A DNA stretch of 64,000 nucleotides, taken from NCBI GenBank assembly GCA_045659905.1, contig JAZRCT010000020.1:194-64193 (forward strand), given 5' to 3'. Numbering within the stretch: position 1 is the first letter of the stretch; each line of letters opens with the position of its first letter. The position numbers and the translations under genes were made by a program. The notes beneath the pieces are model-generated. The model had not been told where the DNA came from and did no database searches. It saw only the letters and a program-made list of their open reading frames with translations. Source of the stretch: Eubacteriales bacterium (GTDB taxonomy: Bacteria > Bacillota > Clostridia > Oscillospirales > CAG-272). This document shows, piece after piece, positions 16,378 to 37,351 of the stretch.

Positions 16378-16406
16378 TTGACAATTGCCAAATCCTACCC
16401 TATAAT
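16378..16406 (+). promoter_or_regulatory. sigma-A promoter of the rnf operon
   Basis: TTGACA-17 nt-TATAAT, a perfect consensus, 38 nt upstream of the rnfC ATG. Confidence 0.65.
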
Positions 16407-16443: not shown

Positions 16444-17766
16444 ATGTTTTTTTCTCTACACGGCGTTCATTTGCCGCACAGAAAAAATACGGCTTCTATG
16501 CCGCCCGTCAGAATGACGCCGCCGAAGACGGTGACTATACCTATGTCGATGCATATAGGAAAGCCTGCCGACCCCGTATGCAAGGTTGGCGATAAGGTTT
16601 ACGTCGGCACTCTTATCGGAGCACAGAGCGGATTCGTATCCGCACCGGTATATTCGAGCGTTTCGGGTACTGTAAAGAAGCTTGAGGAAATTCTCCTTGC
16701 AAGCGGAATTAAGGCTCAGGCGGTTACTATCGAATCCGACGGCGAGATGACTCCCGACCCCGAAATCAAAGCGCCCGAGGTCAGCTCTAAGGAGGAGCTT
16801 GTCGAGGCTATCAGAAATGCGGGTACGGTAGGACTTGGCGGAGCCGGATTCCCGACTCACGTCAAATTCAATATTCCCGACGGAAAGCACGTGGACGAGC
16901 TTATCGTCAACGGAGCTGAATGTGAGCCCTATATCACGAGCGACACCCGCACTATGGTTGACAAGACCGAGGATATCACTCACGCTATACTCACTATTCT
17001 TAAGCTCGTCGATATCGGCAGGGTAATAATCGGTATAGAGAGCAATAAGCCCGAGGCTATTGCCAAAATGAGCGAGCTTTCGAAGCTTGATTCAAGAATA
17101 TCGGTTAAGGTTCTTCCGAGCCTTTATCCCCAGGGCGGTGAAAAGGTTCTTATATATCACACGACGGGAAAGGTAGTTCCTGCAGGTAAGCTTCCGCTTG
17201 ACGTCGGCTGTATAGTCTGCAACGTTACTACTCTCGGAGCTATCGGAAATTATATCAAGACGGGTATGCCTATCGTATCCAAGTGCGTTACGGTTGACGG
17301 AAGCGCCATAAAAGAGCCCAAGAACGTAATAGTTCCTATAGGAACTAAGATTTCAGACGTAATGGAATTTGCAGGCGGCTTTAAGTGCGAGGTCGGCAAG
17401 GTGCTTTACGGCGGACCTATGATGGGTATTTCAGTCCCCTCGCTTGACCTTCCGGTAATGAAGAATACAAACGCCCTTATTGCGTTTAATAAGAAGGATT
17501 CCGAGCCAAAGCCAGAGACGGCGTGCATTCGCTGTGGCTCCTGCGCAGAGCACTGTCCCTTCTCGCTCAATCCCGCTGCTTTTATGCGTGCTTATAAGAG
17601 CGGCAACACAGAGGAGCTTAAGAGGCTCAGAGTGGATATCTGTATGGAATGCGGCTGCTGCTCCTACGTATGTCCCGCAGGACAGCCTCTGGTACAGAAT
17701 AATAAGCTTTCCAAGGCGCTTCTTCGTGACCTTGCAATGAAGAAAAAGGAGGGACAGGGTAAATGA
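16444..17766 (+). CDS. rnfC: Rnf complex subunit C
   Basis: 440 aa. GLGGAGFPTHVK nucleotide/FMN motif and two CxxCxxCxxxCP ferredoxin motifs (CIRCGSCAEHCP, CMECGCCSYVCP). Confidence 0.95.
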   Translation: MFFSLHGVHLPHRKNTASMPPVRMTPPKTVTIPMSMHIGKPADPVCKVGDKVYVGTLIGAQSGFVSAPVYSSVSGTVKKLEEILLASGIKAQAVTIESDGEMTPDPEIKAPEVSSKEELVEAIRNAGTVGLGGAGFPTHVKFNIPDGKHVDELIVNGAECEPYITSDTRTMVDKTEDITHAILTILKLVDIGRVIIGIESNKPEAIAKMSELSKLDSRISVKVLPSLYPQGGEKVLIYHTTGKVVPAGKLPLDVGCIVCNVTTLGAIGNYIKTGMPIVSKCVTVDGSAIKEPKNVIVPIGTKISDVMEFAGGFKCEVGKVLYGGPMMGISVPSLDLPVMKNTNALIAFNKKDSEPKPETACIRCGSCAEHCPFSLNPAAFMRAYKSGNTEELKRLRVDICMECGCCSYVCPAGQPLVQNNKLSKALLRDLAMKKKEGQGK

Positions 17767-18704
17767 GCGACGGTGTAAACAAACTCAATATATCGGTATC
17801 CCCCCATATAAAAAGCCCGAGGACCACTCGGGATATAATGCTCGACGTGCTTATAGCCCTGCTTCCTACCGCTATTGCGGGCTGCTTTATTTTCGGCTTT
17901 GCGGCGCTTGCGCTTATCGTCGCCTGCGTTTGTGTGGCGGTGCTTTCGGAATATCTTTTCTGCGTGCTTACCAAGCGCAAGAATACCGCTACCGACCTTT
18001 CTGCGGCGGTTACGGGACTTCTTCTTGCACTTAATATTTCGGTAAACGTACCGATTTGGCAGGCGGTAATCGGCACTGTGTTTGCAGTGATTTTCGTCAA
18101 ATGCATATTCGGCGGAATCGGCAAGAATTTTGCCAACCCCGCTATTACGGCTAGAATATTTATGGTTATCGCCTTTACCGAGCTTGCATCGTCTGCATAT
18201 CCCTTATGGGATATCGTCAGCTCGGCTACGCCTCTGTCCGCACTCGCCTCAGGCAAGAGCGTCAGTATGCTCGACCTCTTTCTTGGCAACAAGGGCGGCG
18301 CAATCGGTGAGGTCTGTATCCTTGCGCTTCTTATCGGCGCTGCGTATCTCCTCATAAGGAGGGTAATCAGCTGGCACGCTCCCGTTTGTATGATTGCTAC
18401 GGTGTTCGTCTTCTCACTTCTTATTGAGGGCTTCAATTTTGGAGCGGCGCTTATGTGGGTGCTTTCGGGAGGACTTGTTCTCGGTGCGTTCTTTATGGCT
18501 ACCGACTACGTCACTACCCCCACCACGGGACTTGGCAAAGCTATTTTCGGCATCGGCGCAGGATTTATCACTGCGGTTATCAGATTCTTCGGCAACTATC
18601 CCGAGGGCGTTTCCTTTGGTATTCTCATTATGAATATCGTGACTCCCTACATCGACAGACTTACCGCCAGAAGACCTTTTGGAAGCAAAGGAGGTAAGGC
18701 TTAA
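17763..18704 (+). CDS. rnfD: Rnf complex subunit D
   Basis: 313 aa polytopic NqrB/RnfD family protein. Candidate flavinylation site SSATPL. ATGA overlap with rnfC. Confidence 0.95.
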   Translation: MSDGVNKLNISVSPHIKSPRTTRDIMLDVLIALLPTAIAGCFIFGFAALALIVACVCVAVLSEYLFCVLTKRKNTATDLSAAVTGLLLALNISVNVPIWQAVIGTVFAVIFVKCIFGGIGKNFANPAITARIFMVIAFTELASSAYPLWDIVSSATPLSALASGKSVSMLDLFLGNKGGAIGEVCILALLIGAAYLLIRRVISWHAPVCMIATVFVFSLLIEGFNFGAALMWVLSGGLVLGAFFMATDYVTTPTTGLGKAIFGIGAGFITAVIRFFGNYPEGVSFGILIMNIVTPYIDRLTARRPFGSKGGKA

Positions 18705-19243
18705 TGAAAACCTACGTTAAATCGATTGCGGTCCTTGCGTCCATATGCCTTGTGCTTGCGGCGCTTCTCGGACTTGTTAATATGCTTACACAGCCTGTAA
18801 TAGAGGATGCAGAGAACCGTAAGGTTCAGGCGGCGCTTGCAGAGGTGCTTCCCGACGCTACCTTTGAGAAGCTTTCGTTCGTTGACTACGAGGGAACGGT
18901 TGAATTTCCGAGCAGCGTCCTTGAGGCATATTCGGCTGACAACGGCGGCTTCGTATTCAAGCTTGACGTAAAGGGATATTCCACGGGGCTCGTGCTTCTC
19001 GTCGGCGTCAATGCCGAAGGCAGAGTTTCGGGAAGTAAGGTTATCAGCAGCAACGAGACCAACGGCGCAGAGAATAGCTACGGCGAAAATCTCGTCGGTA
19101 AGACCTCCGATACTATAAATTCGGTTGCTACCGTTTCGGGCTCTACGCTTACTACCACCGCATACAAAAATGCGGTTAAGACGGCGCTTGACCTTGCGGC
19201 GGCACTTAAGCCCTTGATTACTGCGAAAGGAGCTAACGGATAA
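18704..19243 (+). CDS. rnfG: Rnf complex subunit G (FMN_bind)
   Basis: 179 aa, N-terminal TM helix, FMN_bind motif VATVSGSTLTTTAY. Confidence 0.9.
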   Translation: MKTYVKSIAVLASICLVLAALLGLVNMLTQPVIEDAENRKVQAALAEVLPDATFEKLSFVDYEGTVEFPSSVLEAYSADNGGFVFKLDVKGYSTGLVLLVGVNAEGRVSGSKVISSNETNGAENSYGENLVGKTSDTINSVATVSGSTLTTTAYKNAVKTALDLAAALKPLITAKGANG

Positions 19244-19974
19244 TGGAAAAGAAGAATAATGTAAAAGACCTTTTGCTTAACGGCGTTCTTTTTGAAAACC
19301 CCGTATTCGTGCTCGTTCTCGGTACTTGCCCTACGCTTGCTGTCACCACGACGCTTCTCGGAGCTGTAAGTATGGGTATTGCGGCAATGCTCGTTTTGAT
19401 TTGCTCGAATGCGGTTATTTCGCTTCTCAGAAAGGTCATTCCCGAAACCGTAAGGATTCCTTGCTACATCATAGTTATAGCGGGCTTCGTTACTCTCGTT
19501 GAGATGCTGATGCACGCATATCTGCCCGACCTTTACGAGCTTCTCGGAATTTATCTAGCCCTGATTACGGTTAACTGTATCATACTCGGCAGAGCCGAAA
19601 TGTTTGCGGGTAAGAATTCAGTAGGCAAGTCGGCGCTTGACGGTCTTGGAATGGGACTCGGCTTTACCGTAGCCCTTTGCGCTATGGCGCTCGTGCGTGA
19701 GGTGTTCGGCAGCGCATCCTTCTTTGGAATAGCGATTCCTTTCTTAGAGCAGTACAAGATAGCCTTCCTTACGAAAGCTCCCGGCGGATTTTTCGTTTTC
19801 GGAATTATGATTGCTCTTACGAGCATAATTACCAAAGGTAAGTATCCCAAGAAAAAGAGCTTCTCCTGCGAGGGCTGTCCCTCGGCTTCGGTTTGCGGCT
19901 CTCACTCCTGCGAGGGCTGTGAGGCTAAGGTTGCCGATGCAGAAGCTGAAAATACCGAAAAGAAGGGAGCGTAA
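19243..19974 (+). CDS. rnfE: Rnf complex subunit E with a Cys-rich C-terminal extension
   Basis: VLVLGTCPTLAVTT is the RnfE/NqrD signature. There is an extra tail of about 40 aa with two CEGC motifs. Confidence 0.9.
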   Translation: MEKKNNVKDLLLNGVLFENPVFVLVLGTCPTLAVTTTLLGAVSMGIAAMLVLICSNAVISLLRKVIPETVRIPCYIIVIAGFVTLVEMLMHAYLPDLYELLGIYLALITVNCIILGRAEMFAGKNSVGKSALDGLGMGLGFTVALCAMALVREVFGSASFFGIAIPFLEQYKIAFLTKAPGGFFVFGIMIALTSIITKGKYPKKKSFSCEGCPSASVCGSHSCEGCEAKVADAEAENTEKKGA

Positions 19975-19979: not shown

Positions 19980-20576
19980 ATGGATTTCAAATCGCTTATA
20001 ATCATTCTGATGGGCTCTGTGCTTGTCAACAACTACGTTCTTTCGAGATTCCTCGGCATCTGCCCCTTCCTCGGCGTTTCAAAGAAGCTTGACCAGGCTA
20101 CGGGTATGGGTGTGTCGGTTATCTTCGTTATGATAATGGCAACGCTTGCTACCTGGCCTATTCAGGTATTTATCCTTGAGCCTCTGAAGCTCGGATATCT
20201 TCAGACGATAGCCTTTATTCTGGTTATTGCGGCGCTGGTGCAGTTTATCGAAATCGTTTTGAAGAAATTTATGCCCGCCTTGCATAAGAGCCTTGGCGTT
20301 TACCTGCCTCTTATCACTACCAACTGTGCGGTGCTTGGCGTTACTATCAACAATATAAACGACGGCTACAATTTCCTTGAATCCTTAGTAAGTGCGCTTG
20401 GCTGCGGACTTGGCTTTTTGCTTGCTATGGTACTCTTTGCAGGCGTCCGTTCACGCATAGAGGAAAGTGGAATTCCCAAGCACTTTAAGGGGCTTCCCAT
20501 CACTCTTATTTCTGCATCTATCGTCTCGCTTGCCTTCTTCGGCTTTGCGGGAATCGTAGAGAATTTATTTAAATAA
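19980..20576 (+). CDS. rnfA: Rnf complex subunit A
   Basis: VNNYVLSRFLGICPFLGVS is the RnfA/NqrE signature. 198 aa. Confidence 0.9.
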   Translation: MDFKSLIIILMGSVLVNNYVLSRFLGICPFLGVSKKLDQATGMGVSVIFVMIMATLATWPIQVFILEPLKLGYLQTIAFILVIAALVQFIEIVLKKFMPALHKSLGVYLPLITTNCAVLGVTINNINDGYNFLESLVSALGCGLGFLLAMVLFAGVRSRIEESGIPKHFKGLPITLISASIVSLAFFGFAGIVENLFK

Positions 20577-20588: not shown

Positions 20589-21401
20589 ATGTTAGAGGTT
20601 TTGTTTGCCGTATTAGTCCTTCTTGCAATAGGTCTGGTGTGCGCAGTGCTTCTCGTCCTCGCCTCTCACTATATGGGCGTAGAGACCGACGAAACGGTCG
20701 TTAAGGTCAGAGAATGTCTGCCCGGCGCTAACTGCGGCGCTTGCGGCTACACGGGCTGCGACGGCTATGCCGAGGCGCTTGCCAAGGGCGGAGTAAAGAC
20801 TAATTTGTGTATCCCGGGAGGTCAGTCGGTAGCGACTAGTGTTGCCGAGGTTCTTGGCGTCGCTGCGGAGGGAGCAGATGTTCCCGTGGCTTTCGTTGCC
20901 TGCAACGGAACTGATGCAGCTACCTCGAGGCTTGCCGATTTTAAGGGCTGCGGAAGCTGTAAGGCTCGCTGCCTCGTTTACGGCGGCGGTGAGGCGTGCG
21001 TTTACGGTTGCCTTGGTTGCGGCGATTGCGCCGACGTCTGCCCCGTAGACGCAATATGCGTAAAGGACGGTATTGCCAGAGTGGATTCGAGAATCTGCAT
21101 TGGCTGCGGGCTTTGCTCCAAGACCTGTCCTAAGCATATTATCCATATGCTGCCGAGGAGTGCAAAGGCTGCGGTTATCTGCTCGAATCACGATTCGGGC
21201 GCTGTTGCCAACAAGGTCTGCAAGGTTGGCTGCATTGCCTGCCGTAAGTGCGAAAAGACCTGCCCTCACGGCGCAATTACCGTCGTAGATAATCTTGCTG
21301 TTATTGATTATTCAAAATGCACGGGCTGCCGTGAATGCGTTGCGGTTTGCCCCAAAAAGTGCATAAAGCCTACCGATTTTGATAGCAATAGAATAGGCTG
21401 A
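20589..21401 (+). CDS. rnfB: Rnf complex subunit B
   Basis: N-terminal TM helix, a CGACGYTGCDGYA cluster domain and several CxxCxxCxxxCP ferredoxin motifs. Confidence 0.9.
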   Translation: MLEVLFAVLVLLAIGLVCAVLLVLASHYMGVETDETVVKVRECLPGANCGACGYTGCDGYAEALAKGGVKTNLCIPGGQSVATSVAEVLGVAAEGADVPVAFVACNGTDAATSRLADFKGCGSCKARCLVYGGGEACVYGCLGCGDCADVCPVDAICVKDGIARVDSRICIGCGLCSKTCPKHIIHMLPRSAKAAVICSNHDSGAVANKVCKVGCIACRKCEKTCPHGAITVVDNLAVIDYSKCTGCRECVAVCPKKCIKPTDFDSNRIG

Positions 21402-21793
21402 TGGATATAGAGAGTGCGAATCCCCAAAAATCCGACGGAGCTACACGCTCAAAGAAGAAGCTCCGCAACGACTTGATACTTCTGTTTTCCGTGCTTGCTT
21501 TTGCGCTTGCCGTCTTCCTTATATTCTTCTTAGGCGGCAGTGCGGGCGAGCGTGTCGTTATAAAGATTGACGGAGAGTGCGTTCGTGAGCTTTCGCTCTA
21601 TGAGAACACAAGTATTGATATAGACTTTGGCGTGGATTCGGAATTTAAAAACAGACTTGTGATAGAGGACGGCGGAGCCTACGTCAGCGAGGCGAATTGC
21701 CCCGACGGAATATGTAAGGCGCACCGTGCTATCTCGAAGTGCGGCGAGACGGTTATTTGTCTGCCTCACAGGCTGGTTATCGAAATTGAGTGA
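21401..21793 (+). CDS. NusG domain II-containing membrane-anchored protein
   Basis: 130 aa, one TM helix, then ...CPDGICKAHRAISKCGETVICLPHRLVIEI, which matches the NusG_II/DUF1312-type motif as I recall it. TGATG overlap with rnfB. Confidence 0.7.
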   Translation: MDIESANPQKSDGATRSKKKLRNDLILLFSVLAFALAVFLIFFLGGSAGERVVIKIDGECVRELSLYENTSIDIDFGVDSEFKNRLVIEDGGAYVSEANCPDGICKAHRAISKCGETVICLPHRLVIEIE

Positions 21794-22308
21794 ATCGGAT
21801 TTTTATGCATAATAAGACAAGAATTCTTACTCTGCTCGGAGTATCTGCCGCTATCGCTATGATGCTTTCGTATATAGAGTTTCTTTTGCCGCCGCTTTTC
21901 AGCGCAGTCCCCGGCATTAAAATGGGACTTGCCAACGTCATAATAATATTTCTGCTGTATAAGCTTGATTTCAAGTCCGCTCTTGCGGTTTCTCTCGTTA
22001 GAGTGTGTCTTGCATCGCTTCTTTTCGGTACTGCGCTTACCTTTCTTTACAGCCTGAGCGGAGCTTTGCTGAGCTTAGCTCTTATGCTTTTAGCGAAGCG
22101 GCTCGGCTGGTTTTCGACGGTAGGCGTCAGCATGCTTGGCGGAGTTAGCCATAATCTCGGTCAGATTGCCGTGGCTATGCTTGTGCTCCGCACCCGAGAG
22201 ATTGGGTACTATATGGCGGTTCTTGCAGTAAGCGGTACGCTTGCAGGCGTATTCGTCGGTTTGACTGCGGCGTTTTTGATTAAGTACGTAAAACTATCCC
22301 GAAAATAA
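21790..22308 (+). CDS. Gx transporter family protein (Hpre_diP_synt_I-like, ECF-S-like membrane protein)
   Basis: 172 aa, 5 TM helices. EFLLPP....PG.K.GLAN and G...HNLGQ motifs. The start is ambiguous (GTG 21790 or ATG 21805). Confidence 0.7.
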   Translation: MNRIFMHNKTRILTLLGVSAAIAMMLSYIEFLLPPLFSAVPGIKMGLANVIIIFLLYKLDFKSALAVSLVRVCLASLLFGTALTFLYSLSGALLSLALMLLAKRLGWFSTVGVSMLGGVSHNLGQIAVAMLVLRTREIGYYMAVLAVSGTLAGVFVGLTAAFLIKYVKLSRK

Positions 22309-22324: not shown

Positions 22325-23392
22325 ATGAAGAAAATAGCGTATATCGTTCTGGCTTCTATACTTCTTCTTATCGGCGCAAGCACTGCGTCGCATCTTATAG
22401 TGTTAAACAGTCAGGACGTCTATTTCGGCGTCGGCACTTACGCTTCTGCAAGCGACCTTGCGGCATCCGAGAGTGAAAAGGACGGAGTAGTACAGAAGAC
22501 CGACGGAAAAAGCGAGCTTGCTGTTACGGTAATGGCAATCACCGCAAATAGAGATGGCAAAATTCTCAAATGCGAAATAGACAGCGTCAGTGCGTCAATA
22601 GGCTATTCCGATTCCGGAGTGGTATCAGCCTCCCCGACGTATATGTCCAAGCGTGAGCTTGGCTACGATTACGGTATGTCAAAATACGGCATCTATTCCG
22701 ACTTTGACGGCGACGGCAGAGTGCTTGAATGGTTTGAGCAGGCAGACGCCTTTGAGAGCGTAGTAGAGGGCAAGGGGCTTGACGAGGTAGAGGCGCTTCT
22801 CGCTGAGGGCGGCAGAGGAAATAGCGAGCTTATCACGGCAGGCTGTACTATTGCCGTTTCGGACTTTATCCACGCATTCGACAGTGCACGCAAGAATCTT
22901 AAGCTTACCGAGGCTAAGACCGAGGACGAAATAGCTCTCGGTATATATACTGCAAGCGCAAAGCTTACCGACGCCACCGCCGAGGGGGGCGGCTCGGGCG
23001 AAATCAACGTTGCAATATTCGGTGCTACCGTGGATAATAGCGGTAAGGTTACCTCGGCTATGAGCGACGGCGTTGCTTATACCGCAGCGTTTGATAATAC
23101 CGGAAAGCCCGCTTCGGATTCCTCGGCTACTATAAAGTGTAAGAGAGAGCTTGGCTACGGCTACGGTATGTCGGTCTATGGCATTTATTCAGATTTGAAC
23201 GGTGACGGCGTGGTGCTTGAATGGTTTGAGCAGGCGGACGTCTTTGACAGCAAGGTCGTAGGTCTTACCGCCGCAGAGCTTCCCTCGCTCGTGCTTGATA
23301 CCGGCTACGGTAAGGATATCCTTACTACCGCAGGCTGCACTATTAACGTCAGCGATTTCGTAAAATCTGCGAATAAGGCTCTTGCCGATTAA
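22325..23392 (+). CDS. extracytoplasmic protein with two FMN_bind-like repeats (PplA-like candidate flavoprotein)
   Basis: N-terminal signal anchor. There is an internal duplication (aa about 64-190 and 226-355). Each repeat ends in TAGCT(I)xVSDF, aligned with the SGAT(x)TS motif of FMN_bind domains. It lies directly upstream of apbE. Confidence 0.6.
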   Translation: MKKIAYIVLASILLLIGASTASHLIVLNSQDVYFGVGTYASASDLAASESEKDGVVQKTDGKSELAVTVMAITANRDGKILKCEIDSVSASIGYSDSGVVSASPTYMSKRELGYDYGMSKYGIYSDFDGDGRVLEWFEQADAFESVVEGKGLDEVEALLAEGGRGNSELITAGCTIAVSDFIHAFDSARKNLKLTEAKTEDEIALGIYTASAKLTDATAEGGGSGEINVAIFGATVDNSGKVTSAMSDGVAYTAAFDNTGKPASDSSATIKCKRELGYGYGMSVYGIYSDLNGDGVVLEWFEQADVFDSKVVGLTAAELPSLVLDTGYGKDILTTAGCTINVSDFVKSANKALAD

Positions 23393-23429: not shown

Positions 23430-24494
23430 ATGAAGCTTAGAATTTTCTTTAAGTTTTTTGCCGTTCTCCTCGTTTTTTCTATTGCGTTAGGTATTCTTTG
23501 CGGCTGCTCCTTTAGCCTTAAGCGAAGATATACCGATTATAGCTTTGATTATTTCGATACTGTCACCTCGATTATAGGCTTTGAGGTCAACAAGAATAGC
23601 TTTGATAAGACCTCTGCGAGAATAATGACTATGCTTTCGGAATATCATAAGCTTTTCGATATTTATCACGGCTACGAGGGAATAAATAACCTCTACACGC
23701 TCAATAGAGAAAAGGGAACTGCCGAAAATCCGATAAGGCTTAGCGCTCCGTTGATAGAATTTCTTGAGTTTGCGATTGACTGCTATGAAAAAACCGACGG
23801 CTACGTCAATATCGCAATGGGAAGCGTTCTGTCGCTCTGGCACGCCGAGAGGGAAATAGCAAAGAAAAATCCGGAAGCAGCAAGGCTGCCCTATGCAGAT
23901 GCGCTTGCCGAAGCGTCGGGGCATACCGATATTTCGGGTATAGTCGTTAATAAGGAAAATTCCACGGTATATCTGGCTGATGCTAATATGTCGCTTGACG
24001 TCGGAGCCATAGCCAAAGGATACGCCGTAGAGAAAATAGCCCGAGCGCTTGAAGCCGAGGGAATAACGGGCTACGTTATCAACATAGGCGGCAACGTGCG
24101 CACGCTTGGCGCTATGAACGACGGCTCGCCCTGGCTGGTAGGAATAGAGAATCCCGATAAATCAAACGCAGAGAAGCCCTATACGGATACGCTCGGTTTA
24201 AAGGGTGAGTCGCTCGTCACAAGCGGCTCTTATCAGCGCTTTTACAGCGTAAACGGCGTCAATTACCACCATATAATAGACAAGGATACGAATTACCCCG
24301 CCGAGGGCTATCTCTCGGTTTCGGTAGTCACGAAGGATTCGGGAATTGCAGACGCCTTATCCACTGCTCTCTTTTGCGTGAGCGTAGAGCAGGGCAGGGA
24401 AATCCTCTCTCGATTTGAGAATACAGAGGCTATGTGGGTATTGCAGGACGGCAGTATAAGTTATAGTGACGGCTTCGCAAAATACCGTAACTGA
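23430..24494 (+). CDS. apbE: FAD:protein FMN transferase lipoprotein
   Basis: 354 aa, lipobox LCGC. ApbE motifs (DVGAIAKGYA, INIGGNV, TSGSYQRF, HHIID). Confidence 0.9.
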   Translation: MKLRIFFKFFAVLLVFSIALGILCGCSFSLKRRYTDYSFDYFDTVTSIIGFEVNKNSFDKTSARIMTMLSEYHKLFDIYHGYEGINNLYTLNREKGTAENPIRLSAPLIEFLEFAIDCYEKTDGYVNIAMGSVLSLWHAEREIAKKNPEAARLPYADALAEASGHTDISGIVVNKENSTVYLADANMSLDVGAIAKGYAVEKIARALEAEGITGYVINIGGNVRTLGAMNDGSPWLVGIENPDKSNAEKPYTDTLGLKGESLVTSGSYQRFYSVNGVNYHHIIDKDTNYPAEGYLSVSVVTKDSGIADALSTALFCVSVEQGREILSRFENTEAMWVLQDGSISYSDGFAKYRN

Positions 24495-24944: not shown

Positions 24945-24973
24945 TTGACATTTATTTTAAATTATGTTATAAT
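24945..24973 (+). promoter_or_regulatory. sigma-A promoter of the carbohydrate cluster
   Basis: TTGACA-17 nt-TATAAT with a TGt extension. It lies inside the ORF-track N-terminal extension of the SBP gene. Confidence 0.65.
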
Positions 24974-25040
24974 TCTTTCCGTAAATTACCCGTGCTGTTT
25001 TATGTGCGGGAAAAGAATATATCTTGGAGGAAATCATTTC

Positions 25041-28000
25041 ATGAAAAAGTCAATGTTTCAGAGAGCTGTGTGTTTGCTTCTTTCTGTTGCGACTTTGTTC
25101 GGCTTGGTTGCGGTGACTGTGTTTGCGGGCGCTATTAAACCCGAATCCACCGCCGCAACTCTTGATGAGATGCAGAAGCTCGTCGGTACCACTACCTACG
25201 CTGAGTATCTCAAGACGATTCCCGACCCTGTCGGAGGGCTGTCGGTTATAAAGCTTGACAACTCTACCGCCATCGACGAGAAGAAGAATAAGCCTGACAA
25301 GGTTACGGAAAGTCCCGAATGCATAGAGTCGAAGCAGGAAAATCCCGGTGCGTGGGCAGAATACGGAGAGGGTCACGGTGACGCTCTTTACATTCCCGCC
25401 ACGGGTTCGGTTACCTGGAGCGTAGTAATCCCCGAAAATGCCGGCGGCAATTACTACATTAAGATAACTTACTTCAACTGCGAGACTTCCGAAAGCAGTA
25501 TCAGCTCGATTGAGCGTAAGCTCTACCTCGACGATTACATTCCGTTTGCAGAGGCAGGTCAGCTCAATCTCACGAAGTACTGGGAATACCCGACCTACGT
25601 TAAGACCGAGGTTAGCGATACAGACGAGCCTGACGGTGTGAGAGTAGAGTATCCCAGAGTTACGAGCGGTACGCTTGAGGAGAAGGGCTACTATAAGCAC
25701 GTAATCAGCGTCAAGGGCGGCAAGAAGACGGTTGATATATACAAAATCGAGGAAGATATCAACGGCAACTCGATGGCGCCCGATATTAAGCAGGTTTCCA
25801 AGTGGGGTGCTTACTACTGTCAGGATACCACGGGCTATTACAACGATTATTTCCGCTTCTATTTCCCTGCGGGTAACCGTACTATAACCCTTGCGGCAGA
25901 GCGTGAGCCCGTTATCATTGAATCGATAGAGCTCGTTCCCGTAGATTCGAATAAGTCCAATTCTACGACCTACGACGAATACATTGCGGCTCTTAAGAAG
26001 GGCGGAGCAAAAGCGCCCGTCGACGGTGGTGTTACGAGAATCGAGGCAGAGTTCCCCGATTTCGTTTCGGACTCGTCGGTTGCCGCAACCAACGACAACA
26101 CCTCTGCGATAAACTATCCTGCATTCTCCAACGCTCAGCTTTATAACGTAATAGGCGAGAATAGCTACAATACGGTAGGTCAGTGGGCGGCGTACAAATT
26201 CACCGTTTCCAAGGACGGTCTTTACAAGCTGGCTCTCAGATACAAGCAGGATGCGCTTCAGGGTATGTATATATGCCGTGCTATCAAGCTTTCGGGCGGT
26301 GCATACGGCGATACTCCCGCAGCTCCCTTTGCTGAGGCTTACAACTGCCAGTTTGACTACGACAAGGTGTGGCAGACCAACTACGTCGGCGATTACGTAT
26401 ATTACGGTGCAGACGGCAATCGCATAGATATCAGCTCGCTGAGACTCAACTCAGACGGTCAGTACGTCAACGCTGCCGACGAGGTGGTTGAGGTCAGAAG
26501 AGAAAAGAGAGATTTCGAATTCTACTTCGAGGAGGGCGAGGAGTACACGGTTTACCTTGAGTGCTCACTCGGTACTCTTAAGGAGTTAATCCAGAGAGTA
26601 GAAAATTCGCTTGACGAAATGAACGCCTGCTACTTAAGAATACTTCAGCTTACCGGTAACGACCCCGACGAATACCGTGACTACGGCTTTAAGGATATAA
26701 TGCCTGAGGTTTTAAGGTCGCTTCTCGAGCAGGCAATCGAGCTTGAGGCTGTTAAGCTTGAGTTCGAGGCGCTTTGCGGAACGACCGGCTCGCATATCAC
26801 GACGCTTCATACGATAGCGCTGCTTCTTGATAAGATGGGCGCTGAGAACGGCGACGAGATAGCTGCGAATATGACGACTCTTAAGTCTTACCTCGGTACT
26901 CTCGGTACTTGGATTAACAACTCCAAGAGAAGTGCTATGGTTGTGGACAGCATTTACGCAGCTCCCGCCGATTATGAAATCTGGCACGAGAGCTTGCCCA
27001 GAGCAGAAGCCAACTTCTTCGAGTCAATCGGATTTGAAATCAAGTCGTTCTTCTATTCGTTCTTTACCGAATACGACCGGATGGGACTTACCACCGTTCC
27101 CGACGAAAATACGAGAAATGTTGACGTATGGCTTGCAACAGGCCGTGACCAGTCGCAAATCTGGCGTACTATGATAGACGCTAAGGGAAGCTTCACCGAC
27201 ACCACGGGCGTAGCGGTTACGCTTAAGCTCGTTACGGGCGGTACGCTTCTTCCCTCGATACTTTCCGGCAAGGGTCCTGACGTTTATATAGGACTTGGCT
27301 CTACCGACGTTATCAACTATGCGATAAGAGAGGCTGTTTACGGCGTAAGCGGTAACGACTCTGCTCTTGACGCAAAGAAGGTTACGGTCGGCGACAATAA
27401 AGACTATTCTGCAAATGATATATTCACCTCCAATTTCTATACATACTGCGTAGAGCAGGGCGGCAAGAAGACCTACACCGTTTCTCCCGTATACAACGGC
27501 GCCGAGAATCTTACCAACACCTCTCTGACCTTTGAAGAGGTTATCGGTGACAATTTCGTTGAAGCCGCTATGGACACCGTAAGACTTGGAAGAACGGTCA
27601 ACGGCAAGTTTGCTGAAACGACCTACGGTATACCGCAGACGATGTCCTTTGCGATGATGTTCTACAGAATGGACGTTCTTGCGAACCTTGAGCAGGAGGT
27701 TCCCGACACCTGGTCGGAGCTTCTTTCGCTTCTTCCCGTTCTTCAGACCAACAATATGTCAGTAGGTGTTACCTACGGCGCTGCGCTCAACTTTATGATT
27801 TATCAGATGGGCGGCAATATGTGGAAATATCCCGAGGACCCCAAGTACGCAGGTATGCAGATACACCTTGATTCGGATATAGCTCTTGAAGCGTTCGACT
27901 ACGTATGCAGACTTTACAGTGACTATTCCTTCCCTGTAAGCTTTGATGCGGCTAACCGATTCAGAACGGGTGAAATGCCTATCATCATAGGCGATTATGC

Positions 28001-28568
28001 AGGTATCTACAACCAGCTCGTCGTTTATGCGACCGAGATTGCAGGTATGTGGGAATTTACCTCGCTTCCCGGCACGACCAACAAGGCTACCGGTGAATTT
28101 AATTACGATTCTCTTGCGGGAGTCGGAGCTACCGTTCTTCTTAACGGCTGTGACGATATCCTTGCTGCATGGCAGTTCATTCAGTGGCAGACGAGCGAGA
28201 AGGTTCAGTCCGATTACGGTAACAGAATGGTTGCTCTTATCGGTCCTTCGGCTAAATACGAGTCTGCAAACGTAAATGCGCTCAAGAATATGTCCTGGAC
28301 TGCAAGCGAATATGCGGCGATAGACCTTCAGATGAAGAATCTGTCATCTATCGTTAACTATCCCGGCTCTTACATAATAGGAAGATATACAGAGTTCGCA
28401 TTCCTCGCAGCGGTTAACGACGGTGCTGACGCTGTCGAGGCTCTTAGCGGATATATCGACGCTATCAACGATGAAATCGCTCGTAAGAGAGCGGAATTCA
28501 AGCTCCCCACCGAAATAGAGCAGGGCGACGTTCCTTATACGAATTGTCCCTGCTGTGTCTCGAAGTAA
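25041..28568 (+). CDS. very large extracellular solute-binding protein (two CBM-like beta-sandwich modules + helical region + family-1 SBP domain)
   Basis: GGAGGA RBS before the ATG at 25041. Signal peptide MKKSMFQRAVCLLLSVATLFGLVAVTVFAGA with no lipobox Cys. The C-terminal roughly 480 aa look like a sugar SBP (VDVWLATGRDQ..., GKGPDVYIG...). Confidence 0.8.
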   Translation: MKKSMFQRAVCLLLSVATLFGLVAVTVFAGAIKPESTAATLDEMQKLVGTTTYAEYLKTIPDPVGGLSVIKLDNSTAIDEKKNKPDKVTESPECIESKQENPGAWAEYGEGHGDALYIPATGSVTWSVVIPENAGGNYYIKITYFNCETSESSISSIERKLYLDDYIPFAEAGQLNLTKYWEYPTYVKTEVSDTDEPDGVRVEYPRVTSGTLEEKGYYKHVISVKGGKKTVDIYKIEEDINGNSMAPDIKQVSKWGAYYCQDTTGYYNDYFRFYFPAGNRTITLAAEREPVIIESIELVPVDSNKSNSTTYDEYIAALKKGGAKAPVDGGVTRIEAEFPDFVSDSSVAATNDNTSAINYPAFSNAQLYNVIGENSYNTVGQWAAYKFTVSKDGLYKLALRYKQDALQGMYICRAIKLSGGAYGDTPAAPFAEAYNCQFDYDKVWQTNYVGDYVYYGADGNRIDISSLRLNSDGQYVNAADEVVEVRREKRDFEFYFEEGEEYTVYLECSLGTLKELIQRVENSLDEMNACYLRILQLTGNDPDEYRDYGFKDIMPEVLRSLLEQAIELEAVKLEFEALCGTTGSHITTLHTIALLLDKMGAENGDEIAANMTTLKSYLGTLGTWINNSKRSAMVVDSIYAAPADYEIWHESLPRAEANFFESIGFEIKSFFYSFFTEYDRMGLTTVPDENTRNVDVWLATGRDQSQIWRTMIDAKGSFTDTTGVAVTLKLVTGGTLLPSILSGKGPDVYIGLGSTDVINYAIREAVYGVSGNDSALDAKKVTVGDNKDYSANDIFTSNFYTYCVEQGGKKTYTVSPVYNGAENLTNTSLTFEEVIGDNFVEAAMDTVRLGRTVNGKFAETTYGIPQTMSFAMMFYRMDVLANLEQEVPDTWSELLSLLPVLQTNNMSVGVTYGAALNFMIYQMGGNMWKYPEDPKYAGMQIHLDSDIALEAFDYVCRLYSDYSFPVSFDAANRFRTGEMPIIIGDYAGIYNQLVVYATEIAGMWEFTSLPGTTNKATGEFNYDSLAGVGATVLLNGCDDILAAWQFIQWQTSEKVQSDYGNRMVALIGPSAKYESANVNALKNMSWTASEYAAIDLQMKNLSSIVNYPGSYIIGRYTEFAFLAAVNDGADAVEALSGYIDAINDEIARKRAEFKLPTEIEQGDVPYTNCPCCVSK

Positions 28569-28591
28569 CAAAAGAGATAAGGAGATAAAAG

Positions 28592-29539
28592 ATGTCACAG
28601 ACTAAAGAAGCAAACCGTCCGGTAAAGCGTTCTGAGGTCTCGAAGCTGCGTTGGACGTGGCAGGAAATGAAGAATAATAAGACGGCATACTTTATGCTTG
28701 CGCCGTTCTTTCTCCTCTTTATTATATTTACAATCCTGCCCGTTCTGCTCTCGATGATTTTGAGCTTAACCGACTTTAATATGTTGCAGATGCCGCAATT
28801 CCTCGGAATCTCCAACTTTATCCGTCTGTTCCTTGAAGACGATATATTTCTTCTTGCGTGTCAGAATACGTTAATATTTGCTGCGATTACAGGACCAGTT
28901 TCCTATCTTATTTCGTTGCTTATTGCGTGGTTCATCAACGAGCTTCCCCCGAAGATACGTTCGGTTGTAACCCTCGTATTCTACGCCCCCTCGATTTCAG
29001 GACAGGTTTACCTTATATGGAAAACCCTCTTCTCCTCGGACTCCTACGGTTGGGCGAATGCAACCCTTATAGACCTTGGAATTATAAACGAGCCTATCCT
29101 GTGGTTCCAGAATGCCGATTACGTAATGCCGCTTTGTATAGTGGTAGCGCTTTGGACCTCGCTTGGTACTGCATTCCTTTCGTTTATTGCAGGATTCCAG
29201 ACAATAGACCGTTCTATGTACGAGGCGGCTGCCGTTGACGGTATTAAGAACCGTTGGCAGGAGCTTTGGTACATCACACTTCCTACGATGCGTCCTCAGC
29301 TTATGTTCGGTGCCGTTCTAGCTATTACCAACTCGTTCGGCTTCGGTGCGGTAGTTGATGCGCTCTGCGGATTCCCGTCGGTAGATTATGCGGCGCATAC
29401 GATAATGCACCATCTTAATGACTACGGCGGACAGAGATACGAAATCGGTTATGCATCGGCAATAGCCGTAGTACTTTTCGTAATAATGTTCTCGGCGAAC
29501 GTTATTATCAAGAAGGTACTTTCGAAGGTAGGTGAGTAA
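28592..29539 (+). CDS. carbohydrate ABC transporter permease (MalF/UgpA-like), pair 1
   Basis: 315 aa, EAA loop YEAAAVDGIKNRWQELWYITLP. Confidence 0.9.
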   Translation: MSQTKEANRPVKRSEVSKLRWTWQEMKNNKTAYFMLAPFFLLFIIFTILPVLLSMILSLTDFNMLQMPQFLGISNFIRLFLEDDIFLLACQNTLIFAAITGPVSYLISLLIAWFINELPPKIRSVVTLVFYAPSISGQVYLIWKTLFSSDSYGWANATLIDLGIINEPILWFQNADYVMPLCIVVALWTSLGTAFLSFIAGFQTIDRSMYEAAAVDGIKNRWQELWYITLPTMRPQLMFGAVLAITNSFGFGAVVDALCGFPSVDYAAHTIMHHLNDYGGQRYEIGYASAIAVVLFVIMFSANVIIKKVLSKVGE

Positions 29540-29541
29540 GT

Positions 29542-30417
29542 ATGTCCAAAAAGCTTAGAACAAGAGGCCACAGAGTCGTTCTCAACCGCTCTGCCGGCGG
29601 CGATGCGGGCATTACCGTTATGCTCACCCTTATGGGACTGTTTATGTTCATACCTATGTATTACGTAGTAATTCAGTCCTTAAAGCCCCTCGATGAGTTG
29701 TTTATGTTCCCCCCGAAATTTTACGTAATCAGCCCTACGCTTGATAACTTTGCCGACCTTTTCACTCTTATGAGTGACTCTTGGGTACCGTTCTCAAGAT
29801 ACATATTCAACACCGTGTTTATTACTATCTGCGGAACTCTTGGCAACCTTATATTTGCATCGATGGCTGCGTATTCGCTTGCGAAGCTTCGTTTCCCCGG
29901 AAGAAACGCAATCTTCCAGATAATCGTCGCATCGCTTATGTTCCATTCTACGGTAAACCAGGTAACCCACTTTATCATTCTTTCCGCATTCGGCTGGATT
30001 GATACCTACCTTTCTATTATAGTACCCTCAATGGCTACTACGATAGGACTTTACCTTATGAAGCAGTTTATGGAAACGTCCGTACCCGATACGGTGCTTG
30101 AATCGGCACGACTTGACGGTGCGAGCGAATTCAGAACCTATCTTACAATAGCAATGCCGATGGTTAAGCCTGCGTGGCTTACGCTTATCATCGAGTGCTT
30201 CAAATCCCTTTGGAACTCCGGCTCTTCAATTTACATTCACTCTGAGGAGCTTAAAACGTTCAACTACGCAATTCAGCAGATTGTATCGGGCGGTATAGCC
30301 CGTTCGGGTGCCGGAGCTGCGGCAACCGTTGTAATGATGCTCGTGCCTATCCTCGTATTCGTTCTTAACCAGAGCCAGATTATCGAGACGATGGGTTCGT
30401 CGGGTATGAAGGATTAA
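29542..30417 (+). CDS. carbohydrate ABC transporter permease (MalG/UgpE-like), pair 1
   Basis: 291 aa, EAA loop LESARLDGASEFRTYLTIAMP. Confidence 0.9.
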   Translation: MSKKLRTRGHRVVLNRSAGGDAGITVMLTLMGLFMFIPMYYVVIQSLKPLDELFMFPPKFYVISPTLDNFADLFTLMSDSWVPFSRYIFNTVFITICGTLGNLIFASMAAYSLAKLRFPGRNAIFQIIVASLMFHSTVNQVTHFIILSAFGWIDTYLSIIVPSMATTIGLYLMKQFMETSVPDTVLESARLDGASEFRTYLTIAMPMVKPAWLTLIIECFKSLWNSGSSIYIHSEELKTFNYAIQQIVSGGIARSGAGAAATVVMMLVPILVFVLNQSQIIETMGSSGMKD

Positions 30418-30429
30418 GGAGGACTAGAA

Positions 30430-32619
30430 ATGAAGAAGAAAATTTTCAAAGCCCTTATCCTTACTTTAGTGCTGGTTCTCATTTTCGGTGCGGTAAGCGC
30501 ATCGGCGTTCGAGTCGTACGACACGTATACCTACTCAATTGACGGCCAGCCCCTTAAATCTCCCTCGGCGTACGACGCCAGCCAGTTCTACAATTCCGCC
30601 TCGATGGGACTTCTTTCCGATAAGCTCGGAGCTACGGCGCTTTCGGGAGCAAGCGATATCGTTACGGACGACGCATCAAACGTCTATATTGCAGATACGG
30701 GCAACAACCGTATAGTAATTCTTAATAAGTATTATGCGGCAACGAATATTATCGATTCCTACACCGACGAGTACGGTAAGCTTCAGACCTTCAACAAGCC
30801 TCAGGGCGTTTTCGTAACCTCACCGGCAACAGGCTCGTCTGACAGCTTGGTTTACGTTTGCGATACGGAAAATTCGAGAATAGTAGTATTCGACAGAGAC
30901 TACAACTACGTAAGAACTCTCGATAAGCCCGAGAGTGCGCTTCTCCGTGACGATGCTTTCAAGCCTACTGCAATTGCGGTTGACCTTTACGGAAGACTTT
31001 TCGTAGTTTCTCCCGCTTGCTATGAGGGCGTAATAGTAATGTCTAAGGAAGGCGACTTCACAGGATTTATCGGCGCTCAGAGAGCAGAGTACAGCCTTAT
31101 AGACATTATCTGGAGAAGATTCCAGACCGATGAGCAGCGTGACAAGATTGAGCAGAACGTATCTATCGCTTATAATAATATAACGGTAGACAAGAGCGGC
31201 TTCGTTTACGTTACCACCGACGGTATCGAGAAGAATCTTCAGGTTGGCGCTATCAGGTCTAAGAATTCCGACTACTCGCCCGTTAAGAAGCTCAATTCGG
31301 CAGGCGACGAGATTATGAAGCGTAACGGCTTCTTTGATCCCGGCGGAGAGGTCAACGTTTCTACTATGTCTATTTCGAAGGGCCCGTCCAAGATTGTGGA
31401 CGTAGCAATAGGCTCTGAGAATTCCTGGTCAATCCTTGATAAGATGCGTTCAAGAATATTTACCTACGACCAGAACGGTAATTTGCTTTTCGCCTTCGGC
31501 GATATGGGTGACCAGCTTGGTAACGGCGAGGACCTCGTCGGAATGACCTATCACAACGTAGACGGCATCAATTACCTTATCACGCTTGACAATGCCAACG
31601 CAACAGCGGGTGGCTACAAGATTACGGTATATTCTCCCACGGAATATTGCGACGCTATAATGAGCGCTCTTCGCAATCAGAACGAGCACAAGTATTCCGA
31701 TGCAATACTTTACTGGCAGGAGGTTCTTACCAGAAACAATAACTTTGACCTAGCGTACATCGGTATCGGTAAGGCCCTTTACAATCAGGGCAAGTACGAG
31801 GAAGCTATGGAAATGCTTTCCGGCGCTTACGAAACCGCCAACTATTCAAAGGCGTTTGCCGCTGTCCGTAAGGATATAATCGGCTCTTGGGTGCTTATAG
31901 TAATAATAGTAGGTGCGATAGCGCTTTGCATAGGATTGGTTAAATTCTTCGGTTGGGCGAAGAAGAAGAACAAGATTACCGCACTTAAGGTCGGAAGAAA
32001 GTCCTACGTCGAGGAGCTTGTATTCGCATTCCACCTCTGGATGCATCCGTTCGACGGCTTCTGGGATTTGAAGCACGAAAAGAGAGGCTCTGTAAGAGGC
32101 GGAACGACCATTATGGCGGTTACGATTCTTGCATTCTTCTACCAGTCCATCGGTAGAGGCTACACCTTCAATCCCCGTGATAATTATTCTACGATTTTAG
32201 TTCAGATTCTTTCAATTTCGCTTCCCGTAATTCTCTGGTGCGTTGGCAACTGGTGTCTTACGACGCTCTTTGACGGCGAGGGAAGCTTCAAGGATATTTA
32301 CGTTGCGACGACCTATTCACTTACTCCCCTTCCTATCCTCGTCGTAATATCCACTATCCTTACTAACGTTCTTACCGCAAGCGAGGGCTCTATGGTAAGC
32401 CTTCTCGTAACCTTCGGATACATCTGGGTTGCTCTGCTTCTGTTCTTCGGAACTCTTGTAACTCACGATTATTCGCTCGGAAAGAACGTCCTTACGGTTC
32501 TCGGAACAATCGTTGCAATGGTAGTTATAATGTTCATTGCCGTTCTGTTCTCGAACCTTGTAATTAAGATGATAACCTTCATTTCCGCAATAATTACGGA
32601 AATAGGCAACCGACTATAG
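30430..32619 (+). CDS. NHL-repeat beta-propeller / TPR / Yip1-domain membrane protein
   Basis: Signal peptide. NHL-like repeats (VYIADTGNNRIVILN, VYVCDTENSRIVVFD, LFVVSP...). A TPR-like stretch (YIGIGKALYNQGKYEEAMEML). A C-terminal block of about 5 TM helices that looks Yip1-like. Confidence 0.75.
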   Translation: MKKKIFKALILTLVLVLIFGAVSASAFESYDTYTYSIDGQPLKSPSAYDASQFYNSASMGLLSDKLGATALSGASDIVTDDASNVYIADTGNNRIVILNKYYAATNIIDSYTDEYGKLQTFNKPQGVFVTSPATGSSDSLVYVCDTENSRIVVFDRDYNYVRTLDKPESALLRDDAFKPTAIAVDLYGRLFVVSPACYEGVIVMSKEGDFTGFIGAQRAEYSLIDIIWRRFQTDEQRDKIEQNVSIAYNNITVDKSGFVYVTTDGIEKNLQVGAIRSKNSDYSPVKKLNSAGDEIMKRNGFFDPGGEVNVSTMSISKGPSKIVDVAIGSENSWSILDKMRSRIFTYDQNGNLLFAFGDMGDQLGNGEDLVGMTYHNVDGINYLITLDNANATAGGYKITVYSPTEYCDAIMSALRNQNEHKYSDAILYWQEVLTRNNNFDLAYIGIGKALYNQGKYEEAMEMLSGAYETANYSKAFAAVRKDIIGSWVLIVIIVGAIALCIGLVKFFGWAKKKNKITALKVGRKSYVEELVFAFHLWMHPFDGFWDLKHEKRGSVRGGTTIMAVTILAFFYQSIGRGYTFNPRDNYSTILVQILSISLPVILWCVGNWCLTTLFDGEGSFKDIYVATTYSLTPLPILVVISTILTNVLTASEGSMVSLLVTFGYIWVALLLFFGTLVTHDYSLGKNVLTVLGTIVAMVVIMFIAVLFSNLVIKMITFISAIITEIGNRL

Positions 32620-32640
32620 TGAAAGCGGAGGTAAATAATT

Positions 32641-35600: not shown

Positions 35601-36270
35601 CTGGTTTGATTCTATCGTCACTACCTACGGCGAGCTTAACGCTGCAATAGGCGGACTTCAGAAGTACAACATCACAGACCACAAGATTATTCTCGGTGAG
35701 CGTGCGGTAGACGAGAACGAGCAGAATGCAAATTACGCAGCGCTTAAGGCAGAAATTATTGCTATGCTTGACGCTCAGATTGCTGAGGCTGTAAGAGTTG
35801 GCTACGAGTATCTTCAGAATAATGAAGCAAGCTCGGGAAGACCCCTTGCAGTATCGATAGATACAGACGCACTTATCGCTCAGTTCTGCGATATCCTTAA
35901 TCTTACCGCAGAGGAGCTTGTAGGCACGGCGGAGAAGCCCACTGCCTTCAAGACCGAAGTCGATGGTGTTGTAGCTAAGTATGAAGCTGAGTATCCTTCG
36001 GGTGGCACTAATCCTTACGTAGTAAGCTTTAGCGCCATTGAGTACGAGTCGCAGTATTCCTACATCACCGAGTCCTTGGCTACCGACGGTAAGAATTACG
36101 TTTATACCGACTACACCAGCGATATAAACAATATCGCAATGGTAACCTACTCGAATGGCACGGATAGCGTGACGTTTATTCTCAACTACAATATTTACTC
36201 CGTTACCGTTAAACTCGGCGATGGAGAAACCTACACAATCGGCAAGTACGATTATGTAAAAATAGACTAA
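32641..36270 (+). CDS. 1209-aa membrane-anchored extracellular protein, DUF5696-like (putative glycan-processing enzyme)
   Basis: N-terminal signal anchor. The DUF5696 assignment is from memory of similarly organised clusters and is not verified here. Confidence 0.6.
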   Translation: MKIKKLISSALTIVLLLGAILAVVTVSASAVCDSTSATANLSSEQIKEVVNASLDYEFETAEEMLAYELSLGYLDSMTTADKKFSMYVNRYTGLFYYVNNVTGQILTSNPSNVKEFNNGSVAKLLMSQISIEYIVNATNKENTDFNSTEWAALYSQINTSFISNGIRVNYTLGDTTTRFLLPGRILAEDYEELVIKPMLLRFETLLETHLRSLVEGNPNFSFFNNSDYEPYEYDCISSKEYKRYVSDMVSLAGDYYGRNSAELKEIKSVQTDILAFSTMFSLKNPKQYEETGKTDSATYKNMIKFYYTPQEGVSANLDIYNSSSDGYHAPMYVFKESAVTAEKRANAARWRKYCPSYTFSEMFASEKECGYVDDSEQKPVFRCSLEYSFNEDGTLSVRLPSNSITFDETVYSLKEIRPIQFFGAGNVKNDGYIFFPDGSGTIVDFNDFNDYTFTTESAIYGNDYAYSALSDTSAHREQVTMPVFGVVNSIKANALTSSRFGTETVTNGYFAILEEGASLAKLGYMGGGSHSYAGAYSVYTPYPMDTYDLSETIGVGGSGAYTIVAETRYNGSYVTKIVMLTDDTVGKECYGNNAYYSASYVGMAACYRDYLKAGGYLSALENISKDLPLYIEALGAMDITTKILSFPVTQTIPLTSFDDVLTMYNEISNNKDTFLKKAEEYEALALEVSETSLKESYLKTAEGYRAMAETAKSIENINFRLTGFANGGMHFTYPAKVRWERACGGKDAFDNLLNEAKKLSDEGKNLGIYPDFDFIYINNTELFDGVSNNKNVSRMVDNRFASKQEYDAVLQEYVTYYTLVVNPATFEELYGKFLRKYSAHAATGISVSTMGSDLNSNFDEEDLTNRSEAEAYVTSILAKMKNEQGYEIMVDKGNSYTYKYVRHIIGAATDSSHYRYSSYAVPFLGMVLHGYVNYTGDALNYAGTPQYYILRAIENGAAPYYVLCYQNTGNLKDDVLLSKYYGVDYNTWFDSIVTTYGELNAAIGGLQKYNITDHKIILGERAVDENEQNANYAALKAEIIAMLDAQIAEAVRVGYEYLQNNEASSGRPLAVSIDTDALIAQFCDILNLTAEELVGTAEKPTAFKTEVDGVVAKYEAEYPSGGTNPYVVSFSAIEYESQYSYITESLATDGKNYVYTDYTSDINNIAMVTYSNGTDSVTFILNYNIYSVTVKLGDGETYTIGKYDYVKID

Positions 36271-36288
36271 GAAGGAGGTAAATGAAAG

Positions 36289-37338: not shown

Positions 37339-37351
37339 GGAGGTGGATGAT

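Follow-up and report, generated by a model that had tools for sequence, protein, structure and literature searches.

A two-domain protein encoded beside apbE at the end of a clostridial rnf operon is a candidate flavin carrier with a variant acceptor motif

Introduction

Which proteins can serve as substrates of ApbE, the FAD:protein FMN transferase (FAD, flavin adenine dinucleotide; FMN, flavin mononucleotide), whose published motif is D-x-x-[S/T]-G-A-[S/T] (PMC12052999)? The question is raised by a gene in a 64,000-nucleotide stretch of DNA from a Eubacteriales bacterium of the lineage CAG-272 (assembly GCA_045659905.1, contig JAZRCT010000020.1, positions 194 to 64,193), the whole of which we call the window. 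The open reading frame (ORF) at 22325-23392 on the + strand encodes a two-domain protein of 355 amino acids (aa), here called X, at the end of an rnf operon and next to apbE. An earlier note on this DNA described X as an extracytoplasmic, PplA-like relative of FMN_bind proteins, with two domains, a variant T-A-G-C-T motif in each and the adjacent ApbE to serve them. As far as computation reaches, our analysis supports that description, with flavinylation as a prediction. X is probably a carrier of two FMNs, attached by ApbE at T175 and T339, that belongs to the FMN-bind2 type and relays electrons outside the membrane as an attachment to Rnf. Homology to FMN_bind, conservation of a hydroxyl residue and linkage to apbE are what we observed; from these we infer flavinylation, the flow of electrons and the partners of X.

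Results

Two repeats, each ending in T-A-G-C-T

The ORF was found with the coordinates and length that the earlier note gave, and its product has a hydrophobic anchor helix at the N terminus, in agreement with the membrane anchoring noted there. A ribosome-binding site, AAGGAG, lies 7 nt 5′ of the start. Residues 1-27 make up the N-terminal signal or anchor helix, with a hydrophobic helix at residues 2-21 in the AlphaFold2 (AF2) model, and are followed by domain 1 (22412-22900, + strand; aa about 30-192) and domain 2 (22904-23389, + strand; aa 194-355). The two-repeat build proposed earlier was confirmed: aa 61-188 and aa 222-352 are 45% identical (BLASTP E 3e-35), and the block KRELGY.YGMS.YGIYSD..GDG.VLEWFEQAD occurs in both. 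Each repeat terminates with T-A-G-C-T-I-x-V-S-D-F. The two T-A-G-C-T motifs had been located correctly, at 22835-22849 (+ strand; T171-T175) and 23327-23341 (+ strand; T335-T339), and the last Thr of each, T175 or T339, is the predicted FMN acceptor. These two Thr are 164 residues apart, and the domain size is about 160 aa.

AF2 modeling of domain 2 alone gave a predicted local distance difference test score (pLDDT) of 94.6, with strands E9-22, E30-43 and E49-63; the full-length two-domain model had a pLDDT of 92 and a predicted template modeling score (pTM) of 0.86. In domain 1, three long β-strands are followed by a helical half that contains EWFEQ, and motif 1 lies in the loop preceding the last helix. 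The order in the models is thus three long β-strands, helices, the motif in a loop and a C-terminal helix. The lipobox Cys, present in 188 of 202 relatives, is absent from X and also from its closest relatives in the alignment (75% and 55% identical). Since there is no lipobox Cys, X is predicted to be signal-anchored or cleaved by signal peptidase I, and not a lipoprotein.

The earlier note had also described a core of 39 nt that is nearly identical in the two repeats, and from it a recent duplication. The core exists, at 22721-22759 and 23213-23251 (36/39 identical), although the first range had been given one base off, as 22722-22760, which matches at only 9/39 positions. The recent date did not hold: codon-aligned nucleotide identity is 55% overall, and codons are identical at 33 of the 59 identical residues. 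Moreover, when domains of 16 species were placed in a maximum-likelihood tree, every second domain grouped in a single clade (100/100) nested in the AGCT clade (100/100), and the duplication therefore predates the clade of second domains. Codon identity and the domain tree, which places the duplication early, together rule out a recent event. The same tree shows that, among more distant relatives, domains were duplicated independently several times.

Homology of the C-terminal half of each domain to FMN_bind

Profiles of the X family matched one chain only in the Protein Data Bank (PDB), 2KZX, with E 0.005 for the full-length profile and 7.6e-4 for domain 2. The alignment places YgM..YG...EWfEQ...AGCTi of the X family on YKM.EYG...EWHEQ...SGATI of 2KZX, and the aligned 2KZX fragment itself passes PF04205, the Pfam profile of FMN_bind (25.9 bits versus a cut-off of 22). 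As hhalign comparisons with RnfG-type FMN_bind alignments were weak, we used a 2KZX-type family as a bridge. This family was recovered via a weak genome match (L157) and consists of two-domain lipoproteins named "FMN-binding protein" or "major membrane immunogen". Its profile matches 2KZX at E 3e-54 and 3O6U, which is Clostridium perfringens CPE2226 and a flavinylated exemplar of FMN-bind1, at E 4e-7; PF04205 is matched by 27 of 36 aligned members. Between domain 2 of X and this family, hhalign gave a probability of 95.5% (E 1.6e-8, 64 columns), with AGCT on SG[A/V]T and Thr on Thr. The suggestion that T-A-G-C-T lines up with the end of FMN_bind domains was therefore borne out in both the profile-to-PDB and the profile-profile comparison, where AGCT falls exactly on SGAT/SGVT.

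X shares with the 2KZX family and 3O6U a C-terminal half of the form G.Y.M..G...EW.EQ ... [ST]G[AV]T plus a final helix. Unlike X, these proteins have a compact domain of about 120 aa, an N-terminal sheet with DG.Y...SGWK, Asp at position -6 and Ser/Thr at position -3 relative to the acceptor, and can be detected with PF04205. Based on the profile alignments, we consider homology of the C-terminal half of X, acceptor site included, to FMN_bind to be well supported. The secondary-structure order of the X models is compatible with the FMN_bind fold, and for the N-terminal sheet the modeled topology suggests compatibility alone. Pfam and NCBIfam scans of ten distant relatives of X found no relevant match, and the PF04205 matches of more distant relatives were all below threshold (E 0.15, 0.065, 0.007 and 0.0012).

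Conservation of the hydroxyl residue in the motif

In X, the two motifs stand in the contexts E-L-I-T-A-G-C-T and D-I-L-T-T-A-G-C-T. Both keep Gly at -2 and Thr at 0, and position -6 is Leu or Val. A regular-expression screen could tally 177 of 202 close relatives, and in these C and T never varied in either domain; of the remaining relatives, most likewise have AGCT in each domain, and in three a single G-C-T motif is intact. For a wider count, we took 326 domains from the 149 best representatives. Position 0 was Thr in 305 domains, Ser in 13 and another residue in 2, such that Thr or Ser was present in 318/326 (98%); exchange of Thr for Ser is tolerated at the ApbE acceptor (PMC12052999). 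The neighboring positions varied more widely: position -1 was Cys (263), Val (42) or Ala (10), position -2 was Gly (236) or Ser (55), and position -3 was Ala (271), Ser (31) or Thr (10). Val occupied -1 in 209 of 212 Ruminiclostridium-type motifs, and Ala and Val alternate there in the 2KZX family. Variants among the relatives include [DE]-L-x-S-S-V-T, D-L-N-S-K-V-T, GC[TS], SSCT, SGVT and the canonical D-V-V-S-G-A-T.

A hydroxyl residue that stays constant while its neighbors drift is the pattern that would be expected of an acceptor site, not of a lost one. The simplest view of the Cys at -1 is that it is a packing residue, small and hydrophobic, in the place that Ala or Val takes in relatives. 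Because Val and Ala fill the same position in relatives, so that -1 is Cys, Val or Ala across the superfamily, we down-weighted a special mechanistic meaning of this Cys. A small lipoprotein in a Ruminiclostridium genome (G025; L152:581-1141), with a weak FMN_bind match, also has a noncanonical acceptor-like motif, D-T-I-A-S-A-T.

An apparently orphan ApbE in Ruminiclostridium

The most informative case was Ruminiclostridium: RnfD/NqrB was not found in the five genomes checked, and two of the five, one of them a closed genome, also had no PF04205 match. These genomes nevertheless hold, in one locus, genes for a Pyr_redox_2 (Ndh2-like) protein, a polyprenyl synthase, UbiA, EetA, EetB, X and ApbE, and the X of this locus is 35% identical to that of the window (E 2e-33). 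Judging from these genes, this is the Listeria flavin-based electron-export locus (ndh2-dmkB-dmkA-eetA-eetB-X-apbE), with X in the PplA slot. Orphan-ApbE logic earlier identified DUF2271 and DUF3570 as ApbE substrates (PMC8238504). Because the Ruminiclostridium ApbE has no RnfD/NqrB and, in two genomes, no PF04205 protein, X is its evident predicted substrate, in a search that covered RnfD/NqrB and PF04205 and not DUF2271, DUF3570, Flavodoxin_4 or FMN_red. In the closed Ruminiclostridium genome G125 (L105), which has no Rnf and no Pfam FMN_bind match, the gene for a large subunit of an Fe-only hydrogenase lies just downstream of the electron-export locus.

Linkage of X to apbE

We fetched the neighborhood of X in 80 related genome loci and in 40 loci of more distant relatives (~120 loci in all). 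In most of the first 80, apbE directly follows X, and the usual order is rnfCDGEAB-eetA-eetB-X-apbE. In the exceptions, apbE lies 1.5-9 kb further downstream (L016, L038 and L050) or the contig ends first (L039 and L047). The X-apbE pair is intact where it is separated from rnf (L063, L065, L074 and L083). Most loci of the distant relatives also have apbE next to X, irrespective of the motif type (S-x-V-T, GC[TS] or SGVT), and the 8 of 40 loci with no apbE nearby are mostly those with the weakest profile matches. If apbE were present only for Rnf, the persistence of X-apbE without rnf or away from it would be left unexplained.

Within the window's genus, apbE was found in 28 of 37 genomes and X in only about 11, always beside apbE, leaving 17 genomes with apbE and without X. 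With so many genomes of the genus carrying apbE and no X, X is accessory to Rnf maturation and not required for it. Eight loci of the window's placeholder genus (L164-L171) have the order X-apbE-rnfCDGEAB, with no eetA or eetB nearby; their X proteins have diverged strongly (AGCS, SGCT...PYSPFSF), and one of them, in L169, is a three-domain form of 547 aa. In three further genomes (G237, G211 and G068; loci L098, L099 and L100), paired apbE genes lie beside eetB and an X of the S-L-V-T type, and one gene of each pair may encode a paralogue specialized for the variant motif.

Size and spread of the family

The close AGCT clade, in which Pfam recognizes no domain, comprises >1,200 clusters at 90% identity and occurs in at least 529 species genomes, mainly metagenome-assembled genomes of gut Acutalibacteraceae and Oscillospiraceae. 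In a class-wide sample, X-like domains were present in 47 of 399 Clostridia genomes. The X domain profile matches 1,496 clusters at 50% identity, and the Ruminiclostridium member is matched by >4,400 clusters at 90% identity. The relatives are single- or double-domain lipoproteins, and hhalign connects the AGCT clade to the S-x-V-T clade at E 3e-38. Among the 149 representatives, most proteins have two domains (131); the others have four (11), six (2), one (4) or three (1). AGCT-type proteins with four and six domains (P0361, P0362 and similar) are 624-991 aa long.

The operon that contains X

Ten genes lie downstream of one perfect consensus promoter: rnfCDGEAB, a NusG_II gene, a PF07456 gene, X and apbE. 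The promoter, a sigma-70-type TTGACA-17-TATAAT at 16378-16406 (+ strand) upstream of rnfC, is the only 12/12 match to the consensus before the next one, at 24945. All ten genes are on the + strand. The rnf genes are rnfC (16444-17766), rnfD (17763-18704), rnfG (18704-19243), rnfE (19243-19974), rnfA (19980-20576) and rnfB (20589-21401). They are followed by genes for an EetA-like membrane protein (21401-21793; NusG_II domain, PF07009, E 4.8e-26) and an EetB-like protein (21790-22308; PF07456, E 1.9e-37). In Listeria, the PF07456 protein is EetB, which binds substrate as a subunit of the FAD exporter, and EetA is its usual neighbor; eetB is co-localized with rnf in 572 Clostridia genomes (PMC9973259). 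Beyond X, apbE (23430-24494) encodes an FAD:protein FMN transferase with an N-terminal lipoprotein-type signal; its place next to X, which the earlier note had recognized, was confirmed with PF02424 (E 2e-67). The second perfect promoter, at 24945, opens an ABC cluster of the sugar type (24945-38401), which includes a giant binding protein, stands apart from X and is unrelated to it.

The genome itself (1.77 Mb, 94% complete) contains a single ApbE, and RnfG is its only FMN_bind protein by Pfam. Homologues of Ndh2, of the UbiA-type prenyltransferase DmkA and of the polyprenyl synthase DmkB were not found in it by tblastn (E 1e-4), consistent with the earlier statement that the locus lacks Ndh2 and DmkA partners. 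RnfG of the window has a single FMN_bind domain with SGST, as described before. RnfD contains D-I-V-S-S-A-T-P-L, in which Ser replaces the canonical Gly at -2. Given a single ApbE, SGST in RnfG and SSAT in RnfD, this ApbE must already accept at least SGST and SSAT. RnfG is also a single-domain protein in L003 (169-179 aa in the window and L003), and in most relatives of the operon it has ~390 aa with two FMN_bind/SGAT sites (L001:3783-4961, L006 and L007).

Discussion

FMN-bind2, a domain of about 160 aa with elongated strands β1-β3 that occurs in even numbers and pairs via its sheets, was identified by BLAST, and its exemplar NTW96865.1, from an Erysipelotrichaceae bacterium, has no InterPro entry (Huang, Meheust, Barquera, Light 2024, mSystems, PMC11334425). 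X is like FMN-bind2 in its domains of about 160 aa, with the two Thr 164 residues apart, and in its three elongated strands, lack of Pfam coverage and association with ApbE; we set the two together by the published description. With respect to pairing, domain counts in the X family are mostly even (2, 4 or 6), with the single-domain proteins and the one three-domain protein as exceptions, and the pTM of the two-domain model is that given above. PMC11334425 speaks of [S/T]GA[S/T]-like sites and describes neither AGCT, S-x-V-T or GC[TS] nor a position at the end of an rnf operon.

PplA of Listeria monocytogenes is flavinylated at T143 and T265, with a spacing of 122 residues and domains of the compact type (Light et al. 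2018; PMC9973259, PMC8906456). Like PplA, X would be extracytoplasmic, has two predicted flavin-acceptor domains and is encoded beside apbE (FmnB), eetA and eetB. It differs from PplA in the spacing of its acceptors (164 residues), the missing lipobox and its operon partner, which is Rnf in a genome with no Ndh2, DmkA or DmkB found. X therefore appears to be PplA-like in function and, because PplA is of the compact domain type, not necessarily a PplA orthologue. For rnf clusters with extra outward flavinylated domains, a branching of electrons to extracytosolic acceptors has been proposed (Meheust et al. 2021, eLife, PMC8238504). In contrast to clusters in which RnfG itself is multiply flavinylated, the window has a single-domain RnfG, and the extra predicted sites are on a separate protein, invisible to Pfam, beside apbE.

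How could X work? By extension from the Listeria work, the EetA/EetB module, whose genes directly precede that of X, would export FAD, and the ApbE encoded just downstream would move FMN onto the final Thr of each AGCT, T175 and T339. Electrons would then be relayed by the two covalent flavins of X on the outer side of the membrane. Because Ndh2 and demethylmenaquinone genes are missing from the genome and the rnf operon ends with X and apbE, the outward-facing flavin of RnfG would be the likeliest source of electrons, making X a side outlet from Rnf to an extracytosolic acceptor; both this source and the acceptor are speculative. A broader version, which we regard as possible and put forward only tentatively, is that small-genome gut Clostridia have a quinone-independent extracellular electron outlet, fed by Rnf in place of an NADH dehydrogenase and quinone, driven by ferredoxin/NADH and passing through RnfG and then the X flavins, together with an ApbE that accepts x-[G/S]-[C/V/A]-[T/S].

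Several observations weigh against X as a flavinylated carrier attached to Rnf. Pfam and NCBIfam scans of X found no relevant match, and hmmscan with PF04205, proposed earlier as a check, gave none at E ≤ 1. Foldseek searches of the PDB with the full-length and domain 2 models returned nothing below E 0.01 and no FMN_bind entry in the top 50; the full-length model had only meaningless matches to proteins like the major histocompatibility complex, with template modeling scores below 0.2. The hhalign matches to RnfG-type FMN_bind alignments (P 0.003-0.06) cover the motif and last helix only, and significant homology to FMN_bind extends over 64 columns in the helical C-terminal half of each domain and no further. 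Compared to D-x-x-[S/T]-G-A-[S/T], the motif of X has Ala at -3, Cys at -1 and its acidic residue at -7/-8 instead of -6, and in a model ApbE substrate an Ala-to-Val change at -1 reduced flavinylation (PMC12052999). Further, apbE is required for RnfG and RnfD regardless of X. Since they need apbE anyway, its presence in this operon is not independent evidence. Finally, nothing ties X physically to Rnf.

Some of these points would fit a protein that binds flavin noncovalently and serves the flavinylation machinery, for example by taking FAD from EetA/EetB to ApbE for RnfG and RnfD, its degenerate motif marking it as no longer a substrate. X is placed between eetB and apbE, within a flavin-trafficking module, its motif is noncanonical at -3, -1 and the acidic position, and covalent and noncovalent flavoproteins interconvert in evolution (Huang et al. 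2024). However, the hydroxyl residue is kept in 98% of the 326 domains while its neighbors drift, and swaps of Thr for Ser occur. Nor is X needed to flavinylate Rnf, as 17 of the 28 apbE-bearing genomes of the same genus do without it and rnf-eetB-apbE clusters are common (the 572 Clostridia genomes). In Ruminiclostridium, moreover, X is the only evident substrate of the adjacent ApbE. We therefore consider a noncovalent binder unlikely. We hold it to be more improbable still that the invariant Cys is functional, as a redox-active thiol, a second covalent flavin link (cysteinyl-flavin) or a metal or persulfide ligand, such that the chemistry of AGCT would be distinct from that of SGAT. This idea draws on the invariance of the Cys at -1 in both domains of the 177 tallied relatives, which share only about 40% overall identity, and on its retention in the GC[TS] variants of the same genus. 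Nevertheless, Val or Ala replaces it elsewhere in the superfamily (42 and 10 domains), almost always as Val in the Ruminiclostridium-type motifs and as Ala or Val in the 2KZX family, and no second conserved Cys is common to both domains, C83 being in domain 1 only. Neighboring side chains of an extended segment, such as those at -1 and 0, also normally face opposite ways, which argues against a functional Cys.

The least probable of the explanations we weighed is that X has no flavin at all and serves the Rnf complex or the envelope as a surface protein with an accessory or structural role, its likeness to FMN_bind being vestigial. The lack of any Pfam, NCBIfam or Foldseek match and the restriction of significant similarity to the C-terminal half would agree with this. 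Such a protein would not account for the fact that the tight and ancient linkage is to apbE and not to rnf, that X lies inside the electron-export locus of Rnf-less Ruminiclostridium, or that the best-conserved residues are exactly those of the acceptor site. The covalent two-flavin carrier thus remains the explanation we favor, as a probable one.

Searches for ApbE substrates rest on the Pfam FMN_bind domain and on [S/T]GA[S/T], and the large X family fails both. If X is flavinylated, ApbE recognizes a wider motif than is currently accepted, and the PplA component of clostridial electron-export loci was overlooked. If this is true, well over a thousand protein clusters now labeled "hypothetical lipoprotein" would be covalent flavoproteins. 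The biology of X extends a known system and involves no new principle. For the organisms, flavinylation of X would mean that many gut Clostridia carry extra outward flavins on Rnf, with a bearing on how these fermenters dispose of reducing power.

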